Shown here: in pieces, positions 27,346 through 39,560 of the stretch
How positions within the stretch are numbered: position 1 is the first letter of the stretch
Layout of the letters: the number at the start of each line of letters is the position of its first letter
Origin: a plasmid
Sequence record: NZ_CP011600.1
Length of the DNA: 64,000 nucleotides
Strand: one strand, 5' to 3'
Notes under the pieces: model-generated
Databases searched by the model: none
Told to the model about the DNA's origin: nothing
What the model saw: the letters and a program-made list of their open reading frames with translations, nothing else
Made by a program: the position numbers and the translations under genes

Positions 27346-27534
27346 ACATGCTTAGGGCAAGTCACGAAGTAAGTCAGAAAGTAGTCGTAAGAACGGTGAT
27401 CACTGTCCGCTTTGTGCCAGAAGTGGACGGCAGGATTTGTTGAACATTTCAGACAAAACCAAACTCAAAACAACTATTGAAATCAAGCCAGCATAGCGGA
27501 TACATTACGCACGTTGTTACTTTGTATCATCAGG

Positions 27535-27912
27535 ATGCCGTTAACTGTGTTTATCAGCCGTGAAGTCATTTCCAGAATCGTGCTTATCATCATGGCTGTT
27601 GCCGTGCTGAGCAGTTCGTTTATGGCAAAGCCACAGGCTGCATACAGCGTTCAGGAAACAACGTCCATCAGTGACCATCAACACGACAGCGATGAACCAC
27701 TGAATGAGCACGATCCATTGTTGTTTCACTCCCACGGTAGCGTGCATCACCTCAATGCCGATCATTCCCACGATCTGAATAAACTCTTTGCTCTGCCTAC
27801 TCTGCACGCATGGAATCCGGGCATGCGGGTGATATATGCGTTGAGTTCAGAACAAATACTGCAAATGCCGCAGTCCACCCCCGAACGCCCTCCGAGAATC
27901 CTGTCTGCGTAA
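27535..27912 (+). CDS. secreted His-rich protein (paralog of 32084..32455)
   Basis: Signal/TM segment then HQHDSDEPLNEHDPLLFHSHGSVHHLNADHSHD. ATG at 27535. The track start 27514 is TTG. Confidence 0.45.
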   Translation: MPLTVFISREVISRIVLIIMAVAVLSSSFMAKPQAAYSVQETTSISDHQHDSDEPLNEHDPLLFHSHGSVHHLNADHSHDLNKLFALPTLHAWNPGMRVIYALSSEQILQMPQSTPERPPRILSA

Positions 27913-31737: not shown

Positions 31738-31766
31738 AGTGTAGAGATTAATACATATGGTAGAGA

Positions 31767-31960
31767 TTGCTACATATTTTCAGTCTTTCTAACCGTACAT
31801 ATCGCTATCTTTTTATGGTGCTCATAATTGCTCTTATCGGTACCGGTCTTGCTACCGTTGCACTGGGCCTGCTGGCGGGCGACAGGGCAGGGGGAGTCGG
31901 GAACGGCGCTGGCAATGAAGATGCTTGCTTATATTCTGGTCGCCCCGGTCGCTGATGCAT
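31767..31960 (+). pseudogene. truncated/frameshifted duplicate of the N-terminus of the MFS transporter gene at 34484
   Basis: NRTYRYLFMVLIIALIGTGLATVALGLLAGDRAGG matches NRTYRHLFMAQVIALIGTGLATVALGLLAYDLAGDRAG. The next helix (AMKMLAYILVAPVA) appears in a different frame (31828..). No full ORF follows. Confidence 0.5.
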
Positions 31961-32035
31961 TATGCGGGCCTTTTTATTCATATCGCCAATACAAGACTTT
32001 ACATTCCAGCCCTTACATCCTCCCCGGGGGGATGC

Positions 32036-32054
32036 TAATCTTTTTATACCGTTG
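32036..32054. promoter_or_regulatory. G/C-tract palindrome CATCCTCCCCGGGGGGATG (RcnR/CsoR-type operator candidate)
   Basis: 30 bp upstream of the His-rich ORF at 32084. Same family as the palindromes at 34441, 37375 and 37434. Confidence 0.5.
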
Positions 32055-32083
32055 TCATTGTCTATTGAGGAAAGCAATCAGCG

Positions 32084-32455
32084 ATGTACCCGATGTTTAA
32101 ACGTTCGCCCCGTTATGTTCTGATGATCGTCATCATGGCCATTGGCATGATGATGTCGTCGATGGTGACGTTTGCGTCGCACGGTACAAACGGCCTGACA
32201 GGCTACGAGATGAATCTGCATGACGCAGAAGTCACCATGTCAATGCAGGATCACTCTCACGATTCGGATATCCCTCAGTCTGGCCACGCAGGCCATCATC
32301 AGACAGACCATTTCCATGAAACCCCTGAGCAGCCGCCCTCTGTAGAGATTTCCCTCTCTCCTGTAACAGACAGATGGTTGCCGCTTGCCGATCTTCGTAG
32401 CCCGGTTAAGGCCACGGACATCATTTACCGTCCTCCCAGCATCCGCCAGATCTGA
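32084..32455 (+). CDS. secreted His-rich protein (paralog of 27535..27912)
   Basis: TM/signal then MSMQDHSHDSDIPQSGHAGHHQTDHFHE. Same architecture as the 27535 ORF. Confidence 0.5.
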   Translation: MYPMFKRSPRYVLMIVIMAIGMMMSSMVTFASHGTNGLTGYEMNLHDAEVTMSMQDHSHDSDIPQSGHAGHHQTDHFHETPEQPPSVEISLSPVTDRWLPLADLRSPVKATDIIYRPPSIRQI

Positions 32456-32517
32456 TCGCTGTTACCGGCAGTTTTTGCTGCCCGGCTTTAATCAACTTCA
32501 GATTTAGCGGAGAGGCT

Positions 32518-33438
32518 ATGTATAAAGACTCTATCCAGGCGCGTCGAGAGATTGCGCGTAATTTCACTGCACTCAATTATCGTGTTGATCCCCTGCACTG
32601 GCAGACGCTCTGCATGGGCGTTAATCGCGACCTTCAGGCCAAAAAAATGCGTCCGAATGTCCCGGTTCCTTCACGGCGTAAAGTCATTCCGTTCCTGAAA
32701 ATGATGCATCAGGAAACGGGCTCGATGCTCAAAGCGATCCTTGCCTTTGGCTTTGATGGCCCCTGGACATCCAGCGGCGGTTCATTTCGCCTGGCGCGAG
32801 AAATTGGGTTCGACATCGCCCACTATGCGAAAAACATTCACCACAAAAACGGGAAAGTCACCTTCCTGGAAATTGGTGCCGCCTGGGCGGGTTTTCGCGC
32901 TGAGGAATGTGCCGGCCATCAGGCGACGATTTCCGGGCTTTCCGGGGAGTTCAGGGAGCAACTTGGGGAAAGCGTATTCCTGCACTTCACTAATCTCACA
33001 CCGTGGCATGCATCGCTGCCAAAAGGCGTGACTGAGCATCCTTACGTGACAGCAGCCGGGCTGGGAGCGCTGGAAAACAGAGGTGTTCAGGCAGGTGAGG
33101 TCGATATTATCTACTCCCAGGCAGCGGCCTATTTCGAACAGGATTACACGGCTTTCCTTCGCAGCGCTGCACGCCTGCTGAAAGAGGATGGCGTCCTGAT
33201 CTTCAACCATGACCCTGTTCTGGCGAGCGCGATGGATGAAGTCGCCTGGGAGCACGGACTGCGGCTGGTCAGACGTAAGCAAATGGGAGGAATGAATGGC
33301 GCGATTGCCCGTTATCACCGGCTTCGTTCGTCCCCGGTAAGTCAGATGGTCTTCCCCGGCGTAAAGCGGGCAGAGGATGAAGAAGTGGTCTGTGAATCAC
33401 TGGTTATGTCGGCGCTTCGTCGCAACGTAGAGGTGTAA
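32518..33438 (+). CDS. hypothetical protein with class-I methyltransferase-like fold motifs
   Basis: RBS GGAGAGG. Motifs VTFLEIGAAWAGF ... DIIYS ... LLKEDGVLIFNH resemble MTase motifs I, II and post-II. Assignment tentative. Confidence 0.4.
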   Translation: MYKDSIQARREIARNFTALNYRVDPLHWQTLCMGVNRDLQAKKMRPNVPVPSRRKVIPFLKMMHQETGSMLKAILAFGFDGPWTSSGGSFRLAREIGFDIAHYAKNIHHKNGKVTFLEIGAAWAGFRAEECAGHQATISGLSGEFREQLGESVFLHFTNLTPWHASLPKGVTEHPYVTAAGLGALENRGVQAGEVDIIYSQAAAYFEQDYTAFLRSAARLLKEDGVLIFNHDPVLASAMDEVAWEHGLRLVRRKQMGGMNGAIARYHRLRSSPVSQMVFPGVKRAEDEEVVCESLVMSALRRNVEV

Positions 33439-33446
33439 CGCCCGAT

Positions 33447-34250
33447 ATGTTGACGCGCAGACATTTTCTCACCACCACAGGAGCGTTGCTGATGACAACA
33501 TTACTGCCGGGGGAAACCCTGGCAGCCTCTCTGGCTGAAAAAGTCAGTGAAACATGGCAAAAAATAAACACCCGCCGCAATCAACAAGAGGCGATAACGC
33601 CGGGCTGGGTTTTGCAGTCGCTCGGGCTTAAACCTGGCTCAACTGAACTGCGAAGAGCCATTTTTGAGCTGGTCAGGCGGATACCCTATCAGCTCGGTGC
33701 ATGGAATGGCGAAAGCATGAGTCTGTTTCAGCAGGGCTTTGGCGACTGCCGTCATAAAGCCGCTGCTGCCGAACGACTGCTGACCGATGGTGGCATTACG
33801 GCAAAGCGAAAGCTGGTGCGGTTTGACTGGGCTGATTTGCCTGTACCTGCGGATATTCTGGCAATTTTGCCGCAAACACAGGGATTTCATGACACTGTGG
33901 CTTTTGAGCTACAGGGCAAAACATACCTGTTTGATGCCACCTGGGATATGGCCTTGCGCGGAGCGGGTTTCCCGGTGATGCCTTCCTGGGATGGCAACTC
34001 TGATACCTGGCCGGTGACTTCCCGGATGTCGACGCAGCAAACCGTACTAATGCCGCAGCCAGGGCAGGACATTTACAGCACTAACCAGATGAGCTGGCCG
34101 CAGCGCGAGAAAACCATGGCGTTTAATCAGGCACTGAATAACTGGCTGGAGGTCATTCGGGCTAACCGTGATGACTGGTGCACCATTATCCATAGTGATA
34201 TTGAAGCCACCCGGTTGAGCCTGAAAACCTGTCTGGGACAACTGAGTTAA
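33447..34250 (+). CDS. Tat-exported transglutaminase-like (Cys-His-Asp) protein
   Basis: Twin-arginine signal RRHFLTTTGALL. Core GFGDCRHKAAAAERLL resembles the transglutaminase-like catalytic Cys region. Confidence 0.45.
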   Translation: MLTRRHFLTTTGALLMTTLLPGETLAASLAEKVSETWQKINTRRNQQEAITPGWVLQSLGLKPGSTELRRAIFELVRRIPYQLGAWNGESMSLFQQGFGDCRHKAAAAERLLTDGGITAKRKLVRFDWADLPVPADILAILPQTQGFHDTVAFELQGKTYLFDATWDMALRGAGFPVMPSWDGNSDTWPVTSRMSTQQTVLMPQPGQDIYSTNQMSWPQREKTMAFNQALNNWLEVIRANRDDWCTIIHSDIEATRLSLKTCLGQLS

Positions 34251-34440
34251 TTCCCTTCTCGTCAGGAGGGGCTGCGCAGGGAAGCGGCGATAACACCTTC
34301 GACACTTTTTATGCTGCTTCAGGTATAACGCTGGGATACCTGAAGCTTTTTTATTTAACATCCAAGATAACAGACGAATCAGTATCCTCCTCACCCGGAT
34401 AAAGCTTGTCATTTTTTTCAGGTCCCTCTATGCTTTGAAT

Positions 34441-34457
34441 ATCCCCCTGGGGGGGAT
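34441..34457. promoter_or_regulatory. G/C-tract palindrome ATCCCCCTGGGGGGGAT (RcnR-type operator candidate) overlapping a TTGAAT -35-like hexamer
   Basis: 27 bp upstream of the MFS ATG at 34484. Confidence 0.5.
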
Positions 34458-34483
34458 GTGATTTCAAACCAAGAGATTTCCTG

Positions 34484-35782
34484 ATGCTCAACATTCTTTC
34501 TAATCGTACCTATCGCCACCTGTTTATGGCACAGGTTATCGCCCTTATTGGCACCGGTCTGGCGACCGTTGCGTTAGGGTTACTGGCCTACGATCTCGCA
34601 GGTGACAGAGCCGGGGCAGTGCTGGGTACCGCGCTGGCTATCAAAATGAGCGCCTATATTCTTGTTGCGCCCGTGGCGGCGGCTTTTGCCGATAAATTCC
34701 CGCGTCGCACCATGCTGGTAACACTGGACCTGGTTCGCGCTCTCGTGGCTATCACGCTGCCTTTTGTCACCCAGATATGGGAAATCTACATCCTGATCTT
34801 CATTCTTCAGGCTGCCTCGGCGGCGTTTACGCCTACTTTCCAGGCAACTATCCCGGATATTCTTCCTGACGAACGTGAATATACCCGGGCGCTGTCTCTG
34901 TCACGTCTGGCCTACGATCTTGAAAGCGTCATCAGCCCTATGCTGGCGGCTGCACTGCTGACGGTCATGAGTTTCCACAACCTGTTTGCCGGTACGGCAG
35001 TCGGGTTCCTTGCTTCAGCAGCTCTGGTTGTTTCCGTGACACTGCCGAAGATGAAAGCGTTAACGGTCAAACGCAGCATCTATGACAAAACTACACGAGG
35101 TATGCGCATCTTCCTGAAAACGCCCAGACTGCGCGGCCTGCTGGCACTCAACATGGCCGTAGCGGCAGCGAGTGCAATGGTTATCGTCAACACCGTCGTT
35201 CTGGTTCAGGCGGACTTTGGTTTCTCACAGCGGTCTACCGCTATTGCGCTGGCCTTCTTCGGCGTGGGGTCCATGGTATCGGCCCTGGTTCTCCCCAGAC
35301 TCCTCGACAACATGAGCGACCGTATGCCGATGCTTGCAGGTACGGCGCTTTTAGTCATTGGCCTGGGGTCAGGCATTTTCCTGAAGGATTACATCACGCT
35401 GGTTGTGCTCTGGGCACTGCTGGGGGTGGGCTATTCACTTTCTCAGACACCGGGTGGTCGCCTGCTGCGCCGTTCGTCAACAGCGGAAGACAGACCGGCG
35501 CTGTTTGCCGCCCAGTTTGCACTGTCACATTCATGCTGGCTGGTGACTTATCCGCTGGCCGGATGGGTTGGTGCGGCATGGGGGACACAGGCTTCATTCA
35601 TCGCCCTGACTGTTGTGGCAACATTGTCGCTGGTCACCGCCGTACTTATCTGGCGTCCTGAGCATGAAGTGTACGCTCAGGTTCACAGCCACAAAGACCC
35701 GGAAACAAACAACGAATCGACCCATGAGCATGATTTCGTCATTGACGATGAACATCCGTCCTGGCCGAAGAAAGAGAAGTAA
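34484..35782 (+). CDS. MFS transporter with His-rich C-terminal tail
   Basis: 432 aa, 12 predicted TM segments. C-terminus HSHKDPETNNESTHEHDFVIDDEH. Confidence 0.7.
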   Translation: MLNILSNRTYRHLFMAQVIALIGTGLATVALGLLAYDLAGDRAGAVLGTALAIKMSAYILVAPVAAAFADKFPRRTMLVTLDLVRALVAITLPFVTQIWEIYILIFILQAASAAFTPTFQATIPDILPDEREYTRALSLSRLAYDLESVISPMLAAALLTVMSFHNLFAGTAVGFLASAALVVSVTLPKMKALTVKRSIYDKTTRGMRIFLKTPRLRGLLALNMAVAAASAMVIVNTVVLVQADFGFSQRSTAIALAFFGVGSMVSALVLPRLLDNMSDRMPMLAGTALLVIGLGSGIFLKDYITLVVLWALLGVGYSLSQTPGGRLLRRSSTAEDRPALFAAQFALSHSCWLVTYPLAGWVGAAWGTQASFIALTVVATLSLVTAVLIWRPEHEVYAQVHSHKDPETNNESTHEHDFVIDDEHPSWPKKEK

Positions 35783-35887
35783 TTTCCCAAAAAAAGACAA
35801 CGTATCAGGAGAGGATAAGCCGATAAAAAGTGTGACCATGGCGTTGATACACATTATCTTATCCCTTCCACCTGGAGAGGATAAACC

Positions 35888-36157
35888 ATGACCGTTCATG
35901 CATCACACCCTGACATTATTAAAAGACTTAAACGTGCCGCAGGGCACCTGAAAAGTACCATCCAGATGCTCGAAGATGAGAAAGCATGTCTGGATATCGC
36001 CCAGCAACTGCACGCTGTGGAAAAGGCGATAACGAATGCGAAGCGTACCTTAATTCATGACCATCTGGATCACTGCCTGGAGGATGCCCTTCATGCTGAC
36101 CACACGGAGTCTGATAAGACGCTTAGCGAATTTAAAGAGATAACTAAATATCTTTAA
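35888..36157 (+). CDS. rcnR: RcnR/FrmR/CsoR-family metal-responsive repressor
   Basis: 89 aa. Conserved H-C-H-H fingerprint (His3..., Cys34, His59/His63 region) and overall similarity to E. coli RcnR (..LKSTIQMLEDEKACLDIAQQLHAV..). Imperfect palindrome TTATCCCTTCCACCTGGAGAGGATAA overlaps its RBS. Confidence 0.75.
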   Translation: MTVHASHPDIIKRLKRAAGHLKSTIQMLEDEKACLDIAQQLHAVEKAITNAKRTLIHDHLDHCLEDALHADHTESDKTLSEFKEITKYL

Positions 36158-36169
36158 GGCAAGCGAAAC

Positions 36170-37300
36170 ATGACTGATTTTTCCACTCTTTTACAGCAAG
36201 GCGTGGCCAATGCCTGGCTGTTCATCCCCAGCGCTATTTTGCTCGGTGCGCTTCACGGACTGGAGCCAGGGCATTCCAAAACGATGATGGCCGCCTTTAT
36301 TGTGGCCATCCGGGGAACGGTCAAGCAAGCGGTATTACTGGGGCTTGCCGCGACAATTTCTCATACGTCTGTTGTCTGGCTCATTGCGTTCGGCGGAATG
36401 TATATCAGTCAGAAATTCACTGCTGAATCAGCCGAACCCTGGTTTCAGCTGATTTCCGCCGTCATCATTCTCGGTACGGCGGCATGGATGTTCTGGCGAA
36501 CCTGGCGCGGCGAAAAGCTGTGGAAGATGGAGCAGGAAGAGGAACACAGCCACGGTCATCACGATCATGACGAAACCCGCATCATCGATACGGGCCATGG
36601 CAGCGTTGAACTCTCGATTTTCGAAGAAGGACAACCCCCTCACTGGCGTTTACGCTCGCTCAGCGGCAAGAAATGGGAAGCTCGCGACATTTCTCTGGTG
36701 ACCAACCGTGGTCCAGGGACATTTTCACAGGTATTTGATTTCGTCGAAAAAGACGGGTTTATGGAATCGGCCCTGGCGATCCCGGAGCCACACAGCTTTG
36801 ATGTTCGCCTGTCTTTAGGCCATCGCGGCCATGTGCATGATTATGATGTGGAATTCCGTGAACATGAACACGACCACGATCATTCCTCGCTGGAAGGTCT
36901 GGATGTTAATTCTCGCGAATATCAGGATGCTCACGAAAAAGCGCATGCGAACGACATCAAAAAACGTTTTGCGAATCGCAGCGTAACCACCGGACAAATA
37001 ATCCTGTTCGGCCTGACCGGCGGCCTTATTCCTTGCCCGGCAGCCATTACCGTTTTGCTGCTCTGCATCCAGGTGAAGGAATTTACGCTCGGTGCCGCGC
37101 TGGTACTGTGTTTCAGCATCGGTTTAGCGATCACGCTGGTTTCAGTGGGCGCAGCGGCGGCTTTCAGCGTTCGTCAGGCAACCAAACGCTGGAGTGGCCT
37201 GGATACGCTGGCGCGGCGGGCTCCATACTTCTCAAGCGTACTGATTGCACTTGTCGGCATTTACATGGGCTATCACGGCTGGATCGGCGTAACGAGCTGA
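36170..37300 (+). CDS. rcnA: RcnA-like Ni/Co efflux protein (NicO family) with expanded His-rich loop
   Basis: 376 aa. N-terminal LGALHGLEPGHSKTMM motif typical of RcnA/NicO. Central loop HSHGHHDHDE...HRGHVHDYDVEFREHEHDHDH. Confidence 0.8.
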   Translation: MTDFSTLLQQGVANAWLFIPSAILLGALHGLEPGHSKTMMAAFIVAIRGTVKQAVLLGLAATISHTSVVWLIAFGGMYISQKFTAESAEPWFQLISAVIILGTAAWMFWRTWRGEKLWKMEQEEEHSHGHHDHDETRIIDTGHGSVELSIFEEGQPPHWRLRSLSGKKWEARDISLVTNRGPGTFSQVFDFVEKDGFMESALAIPEPHSFDVRLSLGHRGHVHDYDVEFREHEHDHDHSSLEGLDVNSREYQDAHEKAHANDIKKRFANRSVTTGQIILFGLTGGLIPCPAAITVLLLCIQVKEFTLGAALVLCFSIGLAITLVSVGAAAAFSVRQATKRWSGLDTLARRAPYFSSVLIALVGIYMGYHGWIGVTS

Positions 37301-37329
37301 TTTTCTCCTGTATGAATCTCACGCCTGAA

Positions 37330-37355
37330 CCCACCAACCGGTGGGTTTTATATTT
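37330..37355 (+). terminator. rho-independent terminator CCCACCAACCGGTGGG-TTTTATATTT after rcnA
   Basis: Seen in sequence. Confidence 0.6.
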
Positions 37356-37374
37356 CTGAAGCCCATCATATTTT

Positions 37375-37449
37375 TATCCCCCTGCCGGGGATAGGAATTG
37401 AGCTTTTATAGCCGCTCATTTATCATCGACAATATCCCCCATGGGGGAT
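37375..37449. promoter_or_regulatory. two G/C-tract palindromes (TATCCCCCTGCCGGGGATA at 37375-37393 and ATCCCCCATGGGGGAT at 37434-37449). The second lies between a TCGACA -35 and a TAAAAT -10.
   Basis: Upstream of the ORF at 37462. Promoter elements inferred by eye. Confidence 0.5.
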
Positions 37450-37461
37450 GTAAAATTATAA

Positions 37462-37884
37462 ATGGAATCTGCTATGCAAAAACAATATTTCAGTCAGTTC
37501 GTCACCGGAGTGTTACTCACTTCGTTCATCGCCATTCCTGCTCTGGCAGCGCAAGGTGGCTTCTCCGCAGAGAAAGAGCCTGTCGTCACTGAGCACATGT
37601 ATGCCGGTCATAAAGTTCAGCAGGAGAATAGTCAAAGCCGGATTCAGATCGTATCGTCAATGCACGAAGGGGCGTGGATCACACTGGAAGGCAATGTTGT
37701 CAGCCAGCAGCAGGACGAGTGGTATACGTTCCGCGACCCAACCGGTACCATCAAAGTCCGCATCCCGCAGAAAGTCTGGAACGGGCAGCACTTCGATGCT
37801 CAGGACCTGGTACGGGTCAGTGGACCGGTAAGCCATGAAAATGATGGTTCAATTTTATATGTTGCAGTTATCAGCAAACCCTAA
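37462..37884 (+). CDS. YgiW/YdeI (BOF, bacterial OB-fold) family periplasmic protein
   Basis: Signal peptide. C-terminal ...ITLEGNVVSQQQDEWYTFRDPTGTIKVRIPQKVW... matches the BOF/DUF388 pattern. Confidence 0.5.
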   Translation: MESAMQKQYFSQFVTGVLLTSFIAIPALAAQGGFSAEKEPVVTEHMYAGHKVQQENSQSRIQIVSSMHEGAWITLEGNVVSQQQDEWYTFRDPTGTIKVRIPQKVWNGQHFDAQDLVRVSGPVSHENDGSILYVAVISKP

Positions 37885-38089: not shown

Positions 38090-39560
38090 AAGAATCTACC
38101 CTATGAATGGATATGCACTCAACCGAATCGATCTTGGTTTCAATCTTTTTTATCGGGATCAGGCTTCTTTTTAGGTAACTTCGGGGGCTTAACTTGCTGA
38201 TGACTTTGCGTTCGGCGCGTAAGCCAGGGATGGTCAGCTTTAGGTTTAACATAGTATTTTGAGCGTAAATCAATACGGGCATTATCCACTCGTTCATGGA
38301 CACTCTTTTCATCATCCAGTGGTATAGGCTCCGGGCCATCAACATACTTTTCCCAGCCCAGCGCTTTCCCGTCATACAGAACGTTAATTTCACCGTCAAA
38401 GTTCTCGCATACAGTAACAACCGAATGCCTAAGTCGATATCCCCGGCCCTCACTGCGTACCTGAAACGCACTGCTTTTGTACTGGAAAGTGAGATTTTTA
38501 GACAGAACGCGCTTCGCCTGTAGGCTGAAGATATAACCCAGTTCCTCTTCAGAATGGTGCACATCAAGATGAGCATTATCAGTAGTACGAGGCGACGTAG
38601 CGAACCGGTTGTTATAGGCTTCAATAAAGGTCGGCAACCATGCATTTGCTGTTTCAATATCACTGATATTCTGAAGCCGCATTTCTTTGACCAGCCTGTC
38701 CTGTAGTGTCTGATTGGCGCGCTCTACCCGCCCTTTTGCCTGCGGGCTGTTGGCATGGATTGGCTCGATGCCCAGTGTCTTTATCGCACGAGTGAACTGG
38801 GTCAGCTCACCTTCCCGCTCTGGGTTATTTACCCTGAATATACTGTGTCTATCAGAGTAGAGAGCGAGCGGTACGCCATGATCATTAAGGTAACCCCGGA
38901 GGGTTTCCATGTAAGCCCGGGTTGTTTCAGCAGGCACAAAACGCAACGCCATCAACGCACTGGTGGCATCATCAATGAAAACGATCAGTGTACATCTGGG
39001 GCCTCGATTTTCAAACCAGTCATGAGGTGAGCCATCAATCTGGATCAGTTCACCGTAAGATGGTCGTCGCATGCGGCGTTGATATATACGGGCAATTTTA
39101 CGACGGCGTTCACGCCATAACCCCTCTTCTATCATCCACTTTCTGAGAGTTTCAACGGATAAAGATAAACCGTGTATCTCGCGCAATTTTTCGCACGCAA
39201 ACGTAGGTCCAAAATCAGCGTAACGGCCTTTGAGGAGTGAAATTACTGTTGCTCTGAATTCAGTAGAAAAGGAATTATTAGGACGCTTTCCACGTCGGTG
39301 GGAAACCAGACCAGAAGGCCCTTCATTTCTATACCGTTGCACCAGACGTTTAACCTGCCGAATAGAAATGCCAATGCGTGCCGCAGCTTGTTCCTGAGTA
39401 ATATGTCGATTAATTGACTCCTGAATAATCTGAAGTCGGTGGAGTTCCTTATGACTCATCGTAACAGTCTCTTTGATCATGAAAAATCCCCCAGAGAATT
39501 GTCTGGGGACATTTTAGAATGGTTCAAAGGGGACATTACAGCTTGGTGTTAACACATAGC
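38090..39560 (-). mobile_element. insertion sequence (IS481/ISNCY-like); boundaries approximate
   Basis: Single transposase ORF 38140..39480. Inverted repeats could not be defined by eye. Confidence 0.4.
38140..39480 (-). CDS. DDE transposase (HTH plus rve integrase core), IS481/ISNCY (IS1202-group)-like
   Basis: 446 aa. N-terminal HTH (ITQEQAAARIGISIRQVKRLVQRY). Integrase-core region with D...D...E spacing. Basic C-terminal tail. Confidence 0.7.
   Translation of the reverse strand: MIKETVTMSHKELHRLQIIQESINRHITQEQAAARIGISIRQVKRLVQRYRNEGPSGLVSHRRGKRPNNSFSTEFRATVISLLKGRYADFGPTFACEKLREIHGLSLSVETLRKWMIEEGLWRERRRKIARIYQRRMRRPSYGELIQIDGSPHDWFENRGPRCTLIVFIDDATSALMALRFVPAETTRAYMETLRGYLNDHGVPLALYSDRHSIFRVNNPEREGELTQFTRAIKTLGIEPIHANSPQAKGRVERANQTLQDRLVKEMRLQNISDIETANAWLPTFIEAYNNRFATSPRTTDNAHLDVHHSEEELGYIFSLQAKRVLSKNLTFQYKSSAFQVRSEGRGYRLRHSVVTVCENFDGEINVLYDGKALGWEKYVDGPEPIPLDDEKSVHERVDNARIDLRSKYYVKPKADHPWLTRRTQSHQQVKPPKLPKKKPDPDKKD

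Follow-up and report, generated by a model that had tools for sequence, protein, structure and literature searches.

Repressors of the CsoR/RcnR family are told apart by their metal ligands and by a short motif. RcnR and DmeR have a His where CsoR has Cys65, InrS senses Ni by the CsoR ligand set together with an N-terminal His (PMC7055735), and the motifs RLXR (CsoR-type) and RASK (RcnR) have been defined (PMC3902906). One member of the family, NcrB, belongs to the nickel-resistance determinant ncrABCY, and the DNA sites of this repressor are the subject of the present work. We analyzed a 64,000-nucleotide (nt) stretch of a plasmid (sequence record NZ_CP011600.1; "the window" in the following), in which palindromes built from a C-tract and a G-tract stand before several genes of an ncr locus. 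The region is very probably an ncr nickel-resistance island in which NcrB controls ncrA, ncrB-ncrC, ncrY and an upstream operon headed by the gene of a small His-rich protein (His-rich operon) together.

The determinant was cloned, and nickel induction of ncrA, ncrB and ncrC reported, by Zhu et al. (2011, PMC3046157; 'Leptospirillum ferriphilum UBK03'). Two promoters were described, pncrA and pncrB, both of which became constitutive once ncrB was disrupted. S1 mapping placed the ncrA start 44 nt before the ATG, the DNase I footprint of NcrB at ncrA extended from −4 to +25, and direct binding of NcrB to 5'-ATCCCCCTGGGGGGGAT-3' was demonstrated by competition in electrophoretic mobility shift assays and by the bacterial one-hybrid method, binding being lost with 1 mM Ni (PMC3046157). 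The same genes, at 100% amino-acid identity, were found in Enterobacter cloacae (Band/Weiss lab, 2021, PMC8545094). There, ncrABC was enough for nickel resistance in E. coli, deletion of ncrB in Enterobacter led to higher ncrC expression and nickel resistance, and ncrABCY-borne nickel resistance could be amplified under colistin. In the literature on NcrY, NirD, nirABCD and NcrB sites, only these two papers bear on regulation, with the original Hafnia, Serratia and Klebsiella oxytoca ncr/nir papers outside the coverage.

The locus in the window is this already described determinant of enterobacterial plasmids. Many Klebsiella, Enterobacter, Serratia and E. coli plasmids carry its 6.3 kb at 100% identity, the number of matching PLSDB records is 804, and NcrA, NcrB, NcrC and NcrY are 100% identical to RefSeq/AMRFinder-annotated proteins on a plasmid identical to the window. 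The determinant is alternatively annotated as nirABCD, with ncrA also labelled nirA. The gene order ncrA-ncrB-ncrC-ncrY is present:

34484..35782, plus strand: ncrA, nickel efflux protein of the major facilitator superfamily (MFS) with a His-rich C-terminus (Pfam MFS_1, PF07690, 134.6 bits; nirA/ncrA annotation at 100% identity)
35888..36157, plus strand: ncrB, nickel-sensing repressor of the CsoR/RcnR family, 89 amino acids (PF02583, 77.2 bits; NcrB annotation at 100% identity)
36170..37300, plus strand: ncrC, Ni/Co efflux protein of the NicO/RcnA type, 376 amino acids, with a long His-rich loop (PF03824, 168 bits; NF007454, 503 bits)
37462..37884, plus strand: ncrY, exported OB-fold protein of the BOF/YgiW family (PF04076, 68.9 bits; NcrY annotation; PDB 1nnx, YgiW)

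The NF007454 score of NcrC compares with a cut-off of 195 and comes from two stretches on either side of the long His-rich loop. NcrY exceeds the cut-offs of PF04076 (25.8 bits) and NF033674 (79 vs 35 bits) and matches 1nnx with an E-value of 2e-13. A first-pass annotation, made from the sequence alone, had described the repressor at 35888-36157 as CsoR/RcnR-family and its neighbours as a long-loop RcnA-type protein, an MFS protein with a His-rich tail, a BOF/YgiW protein and a His-rich exported protein, and these descriptions hold. Its proposal of a shared metal-responsive regulon stands insofar as palindromes do occur, conserved in position, at the heads of ncrA, ncrY and the His-rich operon, but the system itself is not new. 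One of the four palindromes it listed had already been published as the NcrB operator, and the basic picture has been in print since 2011, so that the core of the finding is a rediscovery. Within the literature covered, which excludes the original papers named above, no published mention was found of the ncrY site pair, the site of the His-rich operon, the distal sites or the long palindrome before ncrB.

The following sites, to which no strand is assigned, were located:

34441..34457: published NcrB operator ATCCCCCTGGGGGGGAT, at approximately +1 to +17 of ncrA; the same letters as the 17-mer bound by NcrB (PMC3046157)
34384..34400: distal ncrA site ATCCTCCTCACCCGGAT, degenerate, in an ATCC-N9-GGAT frame, 5 nt upstream of the ncrA −35; not listed in the first-pass annotation
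37376..37392: distal ncrY site ATCCCCCTGCCGGGGAT, 5 nt upstream of the −35; kept in 5/5 diverged loci
37434..37449: proximal ncrY site ATCCCCCATGGGGGAT, starting 7 nt after the −10; kept in 5/5 loci, with the geometry of the proven ncrA operator
32017..32033: operator-like palindrome ATCCTCCCCGGGGGGAT of the His-rich operon, one mismatch to the consensus; same sequence in L002, L003 and L005
35859..35884: palindrome TTATCCCTTCCACCTGGAGAGGATAA over the ncrB Shine-Dalgarno sequence, core ATCC-N14-GGAT at 35861-35882, 10/13 positions symmetric
35808..35816: isolated GGAGAGGAT, resembling a half-site, 53 bp upstream of the ncrB palindrome and a direct repeat of 35874-35882

The site at 34441-34457 matches the published 17-mer exactly and lies 27 nt before the ncrA ATG, the predicted −10 ending 6 nt upstream of it. 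With the flanking T and A, the distal ncrY site reads TATCCCCCTGCCGGGGATA (37375-37393). These two sites and 37434-37449 are exactly where the first-pass annotation had placed them; the site before the secreted His-rich protein is real as well, but had been put at 32036-32054, about 19 nt downstream of its true position. In the 64-kb window, the pattern ATCCCC-N0-8-GGGGAT occurs three times where 0.02 are expected, with 0 of 100 shuffles reaching three, and ATCC-N9-GGAT occurs five times (1.02 expected), four of these within the ncr locus. No additional site appeared in the 64-kb window even when up to three mismatches were allowed. Thus, the palindromes are real, non-random and limited to the ncr locus.

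A consensus promoter scan returned only two forward promoters in the 6.3 kb, one each for ncrA and ncrY. Together with the promoter proposed for the His-rich operon and the terminators, the transcription signals are:

34406..34434, plus strand: ncrA promoter TTGTCA-17-TATGCT (promoter scan; fits the S1-mapped start, PMC3046157; conserved)
37398..37426, plus strand: predicted ncrY promoter TTGAGC-17-TATCAT (promoter scan; both hexamers invariant in alignment A3)
32012..32041, plus strand: putative promoter of the His-rich operon (read from the sequence; −35 CTTACA at 32012-32017, 18-nt spacer holding the operator, TG at 32033-32034, −10 TAATCT at 32036-32041)
34316..34352, plus strand: intrinsic terminator closing the His-rich operon (11-bp stem, 9-nt loop, T6; read from the sequence; invariant in alignment A2)
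37327..37348, plus strand: intrinsic terminator after ncrC (terminator scan; conserved in alignment A3)

The terminator at 34316-34352 was missed by the terminator scan, whose loop limit was 8. At both ncrA and ncrY, the strong palindrome begins 6-7 nt after the −10, i.e., at about +1, and a second ATCC-N9-GGAT stops 5 nt short of the −35. Measured from start to start, the two sites of a pair are 57-58 bp apart in the window and 55-58 bp apart in relatives; Phytobacter, Rahnella, Cedecea and Pseudomonas have retained the promoter hexamers and this spacing. The counterparts of the ncrY promoter read TTGTCC-17-TATTAT in Phytobacter ursingii (L017) and TTGCCC-17-TATTAT in Pseudomonas lundensis (L019). 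For ncrY, it had been proposed that the site at 37434 sits between a −35 TCGACA (37426-37431) and a −10 TAAAAT (37451-37456). This promoter was rejected, as the spacer would be 19 nt and TCGACA is not conserved, relatives reading TCAGAA, TCGAAA or TAAAGG at that place; the conserved promoter is TTGAGC-17-TATCAT with the operator at about +1. The promoter of the His-rich operon, to judge from its layout, may be of the extended −10 type with the operator inside the spacer. Its arrangement is kept in L017 and L019 as TTAACA-18-TG-n-TAA(T/G)CT, giving (C/T)T(T/A)ACA-18-TG-n-TAA(T/G)CT overall. Upstream of this promoter lies a further conserved block, ATACAAGACTTTACAT.

For the conservation analysis, three diverged plasmid copies with 85-88% nucleotide identity were compared, namely L002 (E. 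roggenkampii), L003 (K. pneumoniae) and L005 (P. gergoviae). An NcrB scan of species genomes added 80 further loci (100-62% protein identity), onto which the ten proteins of the island were mapped, and ATCC-N7-10-GGAT was counted within 250 nt upstream of each gene. All sites are retained in register in L002, L003 and L005 despite diverging flanks. Phytobacter ursingii (L017) and Pseudomonas lundensis (L019) have the island with all ten of its genes, their proteins sharing 43-87% identity with those of the window. All sites are retained there as well, and perfect palindromes precede the His-rich gene (59-61 nt before its start), ncrA and ncrY. A site was found upstream of the His-rich gene in 5/5 loci, two sites each upstream of ncrY in 5/5 loci, and a site upstream of ncrA in 16/16 gammaproteobacterial loci in which ncrA precedes ncrB. 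Upstream of ncrC, of the second and third genes of the His-rich operon (for a methyltransferase-fold and a transglutaminase-like protein) and of hupE and hyp229, two genes of a neighbouring operon, a site was found in 0 loci. In the loci counted, the sites are thus located at operon heads and absent before internal genes, and ncrC, since it has no site of its own, would be served by the ncrB promoter. The distal ncrA site ATCC-N9-GGAT stands at the same place, 56-57 bp upstream of the proximal one, in L002, L003, L005, L016, L017, L018 and L020, and the two ncrY sites are 55-58 bp apart across loci. In alpha- and beta-proteobacteria, the ATCC-N9-GGAT dyad (consensus ATCC-yyTCC-n-GGGGGAT) lies 14-35 nt before ncrB, directly after a TTG-type −35. 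Judged on these comparisons, the pattern is that expected of operators, not of chance repeats.

Some variants of the sites deserve mention in their own right. The proximal ncrY site shows a symmetric double change in L003 (10480-10496, ATCCTCCCTGGGAGGAT) and a single change in L004 (10475-10491, ATCCCCCCTGGGAGGAT); L004 is full of frameshifts and looks like a low-quality assembly. In Phytobacter ursingii, a perfect site ATCCCCCCGGGGGGGAT (L017, 1626-1642) precedes a small Cys/Trp-rich open reading frame (MTTQTEPLKLSNDSNEPLG...CTWWCEV...) upstream of hyp121, the first gene of the neighbouring operon, and at the matching place Pseudomonas L019 carries ncrY with its site pair.

The operon upstream of ncrA consists of three genes, which are annotated only as hypothetical, methyltransferase-domain or Tat-signal (twin-arginine translocation) proteins:

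32084..32455, plus strand: small exported His/Asp-rich protein, 123 amino acids, first gene of the operon (N-terminal hydrophobic segment and His/Asp-rich stretch)
32518..33438, plus strand: divergent class I methyltransferase-fold protein, 306 amino acids (Pfam Methyltransf_11, 23.6 bits; homologues all unnamed)
33447..34250, plus strand: Tat-signal transglutaminase-like protein, 267 amino acids (twin-arginine motif RRHFL; homologues carry PF01841, Transglut_core)

The AlphaFold 2 model of the 306-amino-acid protein has a pLDDT (predicted local distance difference test) of 84.5, and its motif I is degenerate (LEIGAAWAG). A Foldseek search with this model returned only generic class I S-adenosylmethionine-dependent methyltransferase folds (template modeling score about 0.35, 9-17% identity), from which no specific function was assignable. 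The His-rich protein, as well as hyp121 and hyp229, had no Pfam or NCBIfam match even at permissive thresholds. All three cassette genes occur together without ncrB in Erythrobacter, and the last two together, among copper genes, in Mesorhizobium. Because of this co-occurrence, the three genes constitute an independent cassette that was brought under an NcrB-type operator in Enterobacterales and Pseudomonas.

The ncrB promoter has been reported to be repressed by NcrB, yet to lack the GC-rich repeat (PMC3046157). The first-pass annotation had noticed a differing palindrome over the ribosome-binding site of the repressor gene and guessed at autoregulation; the palindrome exists, at 35859-35884, and fits the reported NcrB repression. 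Its two half-sites, each of 9 bp, are ATCCCTTCC and, as an imperfect complement of this, GGAGAGGAT; they resemble the left half of the alpha-proteobacterial operators. The palindrome is kept wherever ncrA precedes ncrB, as seen in L002, L003, L005, L007 and L017, and a similar N14 palindrome, ATCCTATC-C6-GATAGGAT, stands before ncrB-ncrC in Serratia and Ewingella. Because of this conservation, the Serratia/Ewingella counterpart and the published NcrB dependence of pncrB, the N14 palindrome is the best candidate for the missing autoregulatory NcrB site. The lone copy of GGAGAGGAT at 35808-35816 is invariant in alignment A1 although the sequence upstream of it varies. In the minimum-energy fold of the ncrA-ncrB spacer, the left arm of the palindrome is taken up by pairing with 35808-35819, which leaves the Shine-Dalgarno sequence GGAGAGG, located inside 35859-35884, unpaired. 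This fold does not speak for a riboswitch-like element in the spacer (z = −1.1; 26 of 200 shuffles fold as well), and explanations at the RNA level are not supported.

The regulator itself was assigned on its protein sequence. NcrB matches PF02583 (Trns_repr_metal) over residues 7-85, well above the cut-off of 22.8 bits. Its best PDB match is CsoR of M. tuberculosis (2hh7, E-value 3.7e-11), and it also matches InrS (5fmn, E-value 1.9e-7). In the alignment with 2hh7, C34, H59 and C63 of NcrB fall on the residues that bind Cu(I) in CsoR (C36, H61 and C65). Among 74 distinct NcrB orthologues, H4, H7, H20, C34, H59, H62 and C63 are conserved in at least 97%, with C34, H59 and C63 each at 99% and H4 and H7 likewise at 99%. 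The RLXR motif of helix 1 is R13-L14-K15-R16 in NcrB and is at least 95% conserved. In a pairwise alignment, His21 of InrS falls opposite residue 2 of NcrB. Cys34, His59 and Cys63 are the likely nickel ligands, perhaps complemented by an N-terminal His.

The first-pass annotation had called the system an RcnR regulon. RcnR was rejected as the regulator: NcrB has Cys63 rather than His and RLKR rather than RASK, it reaches 21.4 bits with the RcnR equivalog NF011613 against a cut-off of 138, and the RcnR type 1 operator TACT-G6-N-AGTA has no match in the window with up to two mismatches. By its sequence, the regulator is NcrB, a CsoR/InrS-like protein, not RcnR.

These observations can be arranged into a model of common control. 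Apo-NcrB, CsoR/InrS-like and by family analogy tetrameric, would bind operators in which an ATCC...GGAT dyad encloses a C-tract and, after it, a G-tract. At ncrA, as shown by others, and presumably at ncrY, the strong site lies at about +1, where it should block initiation or promoter escape. About 57 bp upstream of it, at both promoters, a weaker site of identical dyad and spacing adjoins the −35. The His-rich operon has one site only, which would fill the spacer between the −35 and the extended −10, and at ncrB the longer ATCC-N14-GGAT palindrome over the promoter-proximal region and the Shine-Dalgarno sequence would probably mediate the measured autoregulation. Binding of Ni(II) would lower the DNA affinity of NcrB, so that all four units would be derepressed together. 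Binding at 34441-34457, release by Ni and repression of the ncrA and ncrB promoters have been established by others; we infer the occupancy of the other sites, all start sites except that of ncrA, and the ligand set.

Several points weigh against this model. NcrB binding has been shown experimentally at 34441-34457 only. The interiors of the distal sites are poorly palindromic and may bind NcrB weakly or not at all. The putative promoter of the His-rich operon is a poor match to the consensus and was not picked up by the promoter scan. N14 and N9 spacing differ by 5 bp, i.e., half a helical turn, and hence the same binding mode at ncrB is not guaranteed. The palindromes at +1 become part of the mRNA, where they form 5' hairpins, which makes a post-transcriptional contribution possible. 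Further, a deletion of 'operon2' in the same 9-kb region had no nickel phenotype (PMC8545094); 'operon2' is presumably the His-rich operon together with the MFS fragment described below.

Three other explanations were considered. If only the published ncrA site worked, the remaining palindromes would be low-affinity or relic copies from duplicated promoter modules, and would not regulate ncrY or the His-rich operon. Indeed, pncrA and pncrY have the appearance of duplicated modules, the distal sites are degenerate (ATCCTCCTCACCCGGAT, for instance, has no G-tract), the site at 32017-32033 is imperfect, and the 'operon2' deletion without a nickel phenotype points the same way. Relics should decay, yet the proximal ncrY and His-rich sites are perfect or nearly so in loci where the proteins are only 45-64% identical and the flanks unalignable, and the sites are confined to operon heads; we therefore consider this explanation unlikely. 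A role of the palindromes mainly as nucleic-acid hairpins, i.e., as terminators, mRNA-stabilizing 5' stem-loops or a hairpin sequestering the ncrB Shine-Dalgarno sequence, is more doubtful still. It would agree with the terminator-like calls of the scan at 32016-32034 and 34442-34455, with the 6-7 GC-rich pairs formed by the sites at about +1, with the symmetric double change ATCCTCCCTGGGAGGAT in L003, and with GGAGAGG inside 35859-35884, whose left arm can pair with the upstream copy at 35808-35819. However, real terminators are found upstream of the sites (34316-34352, 37327-37348 and a GGGCCC hairpin before 32017-32033), fold energies are no better than those of shuffled sequences (z −1.1 to +0.5), and NcrB binding is proven at one site (PMC3046157). 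Moreover, only 6 of the 49 distinct ATCC-N9-GGAT sites of ncr promoters are fully complementary inside, 27 having at most one of four inner pairs, which argues for selection on dyad and tracts, not on hairpin pairing.

Finally, the extra sites could be read by another CsoR/RcnR-family protein of the host (chromosomal RcnR, FrmR or CsoR) in response to a signal such as copper or cobalt. The ligand set of NcrB is that of the Cu(I)-sensing CsoR, AMRFinder places ncrC in the class COPPER/NICKEL, and the methyltransferase-fold/transglutaminase-like pair lies among copper genes in Mesorhizobium. On the other hand, the sites agree with the proven NcrB operator in dyad, spacing and tracts and accompany ncrB in different genera and on plasmids, the RcnR-type operator is absent from the window, and deletion of ncrABC affected nickel strongly and cobalt slightly, while copper, chromium and iron were unaffected (PMC8545094). 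This explanation is highly improbable. Joint control by NcrB is the reading we prefer, and the regulon idea, as a modest extension of a known system, finds good support in the comparative evidence.

The surroundings of the locus were inspected as well. Between 27547 and 29396, the window holds an operon of the small exported His-rich protein hyp121, HupE_UreJ_2 and the 229-amino-acid membrane-anchored protein hyp229, which completes the ten-gene island together with the other two units. No NcrB-type site was found before hyp121-hupE-hyp229 in the window. HupE_UreJ_2 and hyp229 recur beside ncrB in alpha-proteobacteria, often divergent from the ncrB operator region (L040, L064, L075, L077, L084). 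Hyp121 (27547-27912) and the His-rich protein (32084-32455) are weak paralogues (BLASTP E-value 7e-5) sharing DH-x-HDSD-x-P and an RPP near the C-terminus, so that both adjacent operons start with the same kind of small exported protein. The hyp121 leader (27480-27546) contains an inverted repeat, GATACA-N18-TGTATC, kept in L002 and L003; the sequence farther upstream is unrelated, and the start of the plasmid island is consequently only about 80 nt away from hyp121. A comparison with L002, L003 and L005 shows the segment 29397-31960, with chrA-chrB and an MFS fragment, to be an insertion. In those three loci, the terminator GGGCCCGTATnATGCGGGCCC and, after it, the His-rich promoter come right behind hyp229; of this terminator, the window keeps only the right half (approximately 31962-31975). 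The chrBA genes lie on the opposite strand. Adjoining the chrB start, 31767-31955 is what remains of an ncrA paralogue, a pseudogene fragment that shares about 80% identity with the first 190 nt of ncrA and has deletions of 12 and 2 nt; some records annotate it as a second NreB/MFS gene. Just upstream of chrB (31738-31780), GTAGAGATT is repeated directly (GTAGAGATT-N9-12-GTAGAGATT), with (A/C)TACATAT after each copy; the repeat may be a ChrB or promoter element. F-type transfer genes occupy positions 1-25000 of the window, and an IS1202-like transposase of the ISEsa1 family (38140-39480, minus strand) directly 3' of ncrY marks the right end of the island in the plasmid. Short contigs in the assemblies of unrelated organisms also match the island, L006 (Marinomonas aquimarina, 4.5 kb, 100%) and L015 (Streptococcus infantis, 0.77 kb, 94%). 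Both are probably contamination, and the same doubt touches the original assignment of the identical determinant to Leptospirillum ferriphilum.

The published experiments used a 4-kb HindIII clone and a promoter fragment from −32 to +43 (PMC3046157). Since HindIII sites are found at 34343 and 34402 in the window, the clone most likely started at 34402 and thus lacked both the distal ncrA site at 34384-34400 and the upstream operon. Tentatively, and with some reserve, we suggest that the NcrB nickel stimulon may be larger than the published ncrABC. It might comprise paired operators about 57 bp apart that bracket the core promoters of ncrA and ncrY, autoregulation through the N14 palindrome, and the uncharacterized cassette of the His-rich, methyltransferase-fold and Tat-exported transglutaminase-like proteins, perhaps joined in other lineages by hyp121/HupE_UreJ_2/hyp229; together, these would hint at a nickel-handling function in the cell envelope. 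As ncrABCY is carried by hundreds of clinical Klebsiella, Enterobacter and Citrobacter plasmids, a complete NcrB operator map would identify the neighbouring genes that nickel induces, account for the unexplained NcrB control of the ncrB promoter and provide a first functional handle on NcrY and the cassette. The paired sites would be a natural example of tandem operators in a repressor family with a poorly understood mode of DNA binding.

Compared with known systems, the locus shares features with each of the described members of the family. Like RcnR-RcnA(B) of E. coli, it pairs a PF02583 repressor with an exporter of the NicO/RcnA type, RcnR being Ni/Co-responsive; the operators of RcnR, likewise, are G/C tracts enclosed in an inverted repeat, and each control region has two of them (PMC7055735, PMC3902906). 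Unlike NcrB with its Cys63 and RLKR, RcnR has His at the fourth fingerprint position and RASK. Its site TACT-G6-N-AGTA is a single-tract type 1 site, whereas in the NcrB site ATCC and GGAT enclose two tracts, one of C and one of G, and rcnR is divergent from rcnA, whereas ncrB lies within the operon. InrS of Synechocystis senses Ni by Cys/His/Cys and N-terminal His, to which the conserved H4 and H7 of NcrB may be compared, and represses an MFS-type nickel exporter gene (nrsD), but is distant in sequence, and the nickel site of NcrB is a prediction. The CsoR proteins of M. tuberculosis, B. subtilis and S. lividans have the RLXR motif and a type 2 operator with two G/C tracts in a 9-bp-spaced dyad, TAC-N9-GTA. 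They sense Cu(I) and control copper export, whereas NcrB answers nickel in vivo (PMC3046157, PMC8545094), and their dyad is TAC/GTA where that of NcrB is ATCC/GGAT. The NcrB operator resembles the type 2 sites of CsoR more than the type 1 sites of RcnR. The closest likeness is with ncrABCY/NcrB of 'Leptospirillum ferriphilum UBK03' and Enterobacter cloacae, with which the window shares the same genes, the operator at 34441-34457 letter for letter, and a fitting start site.

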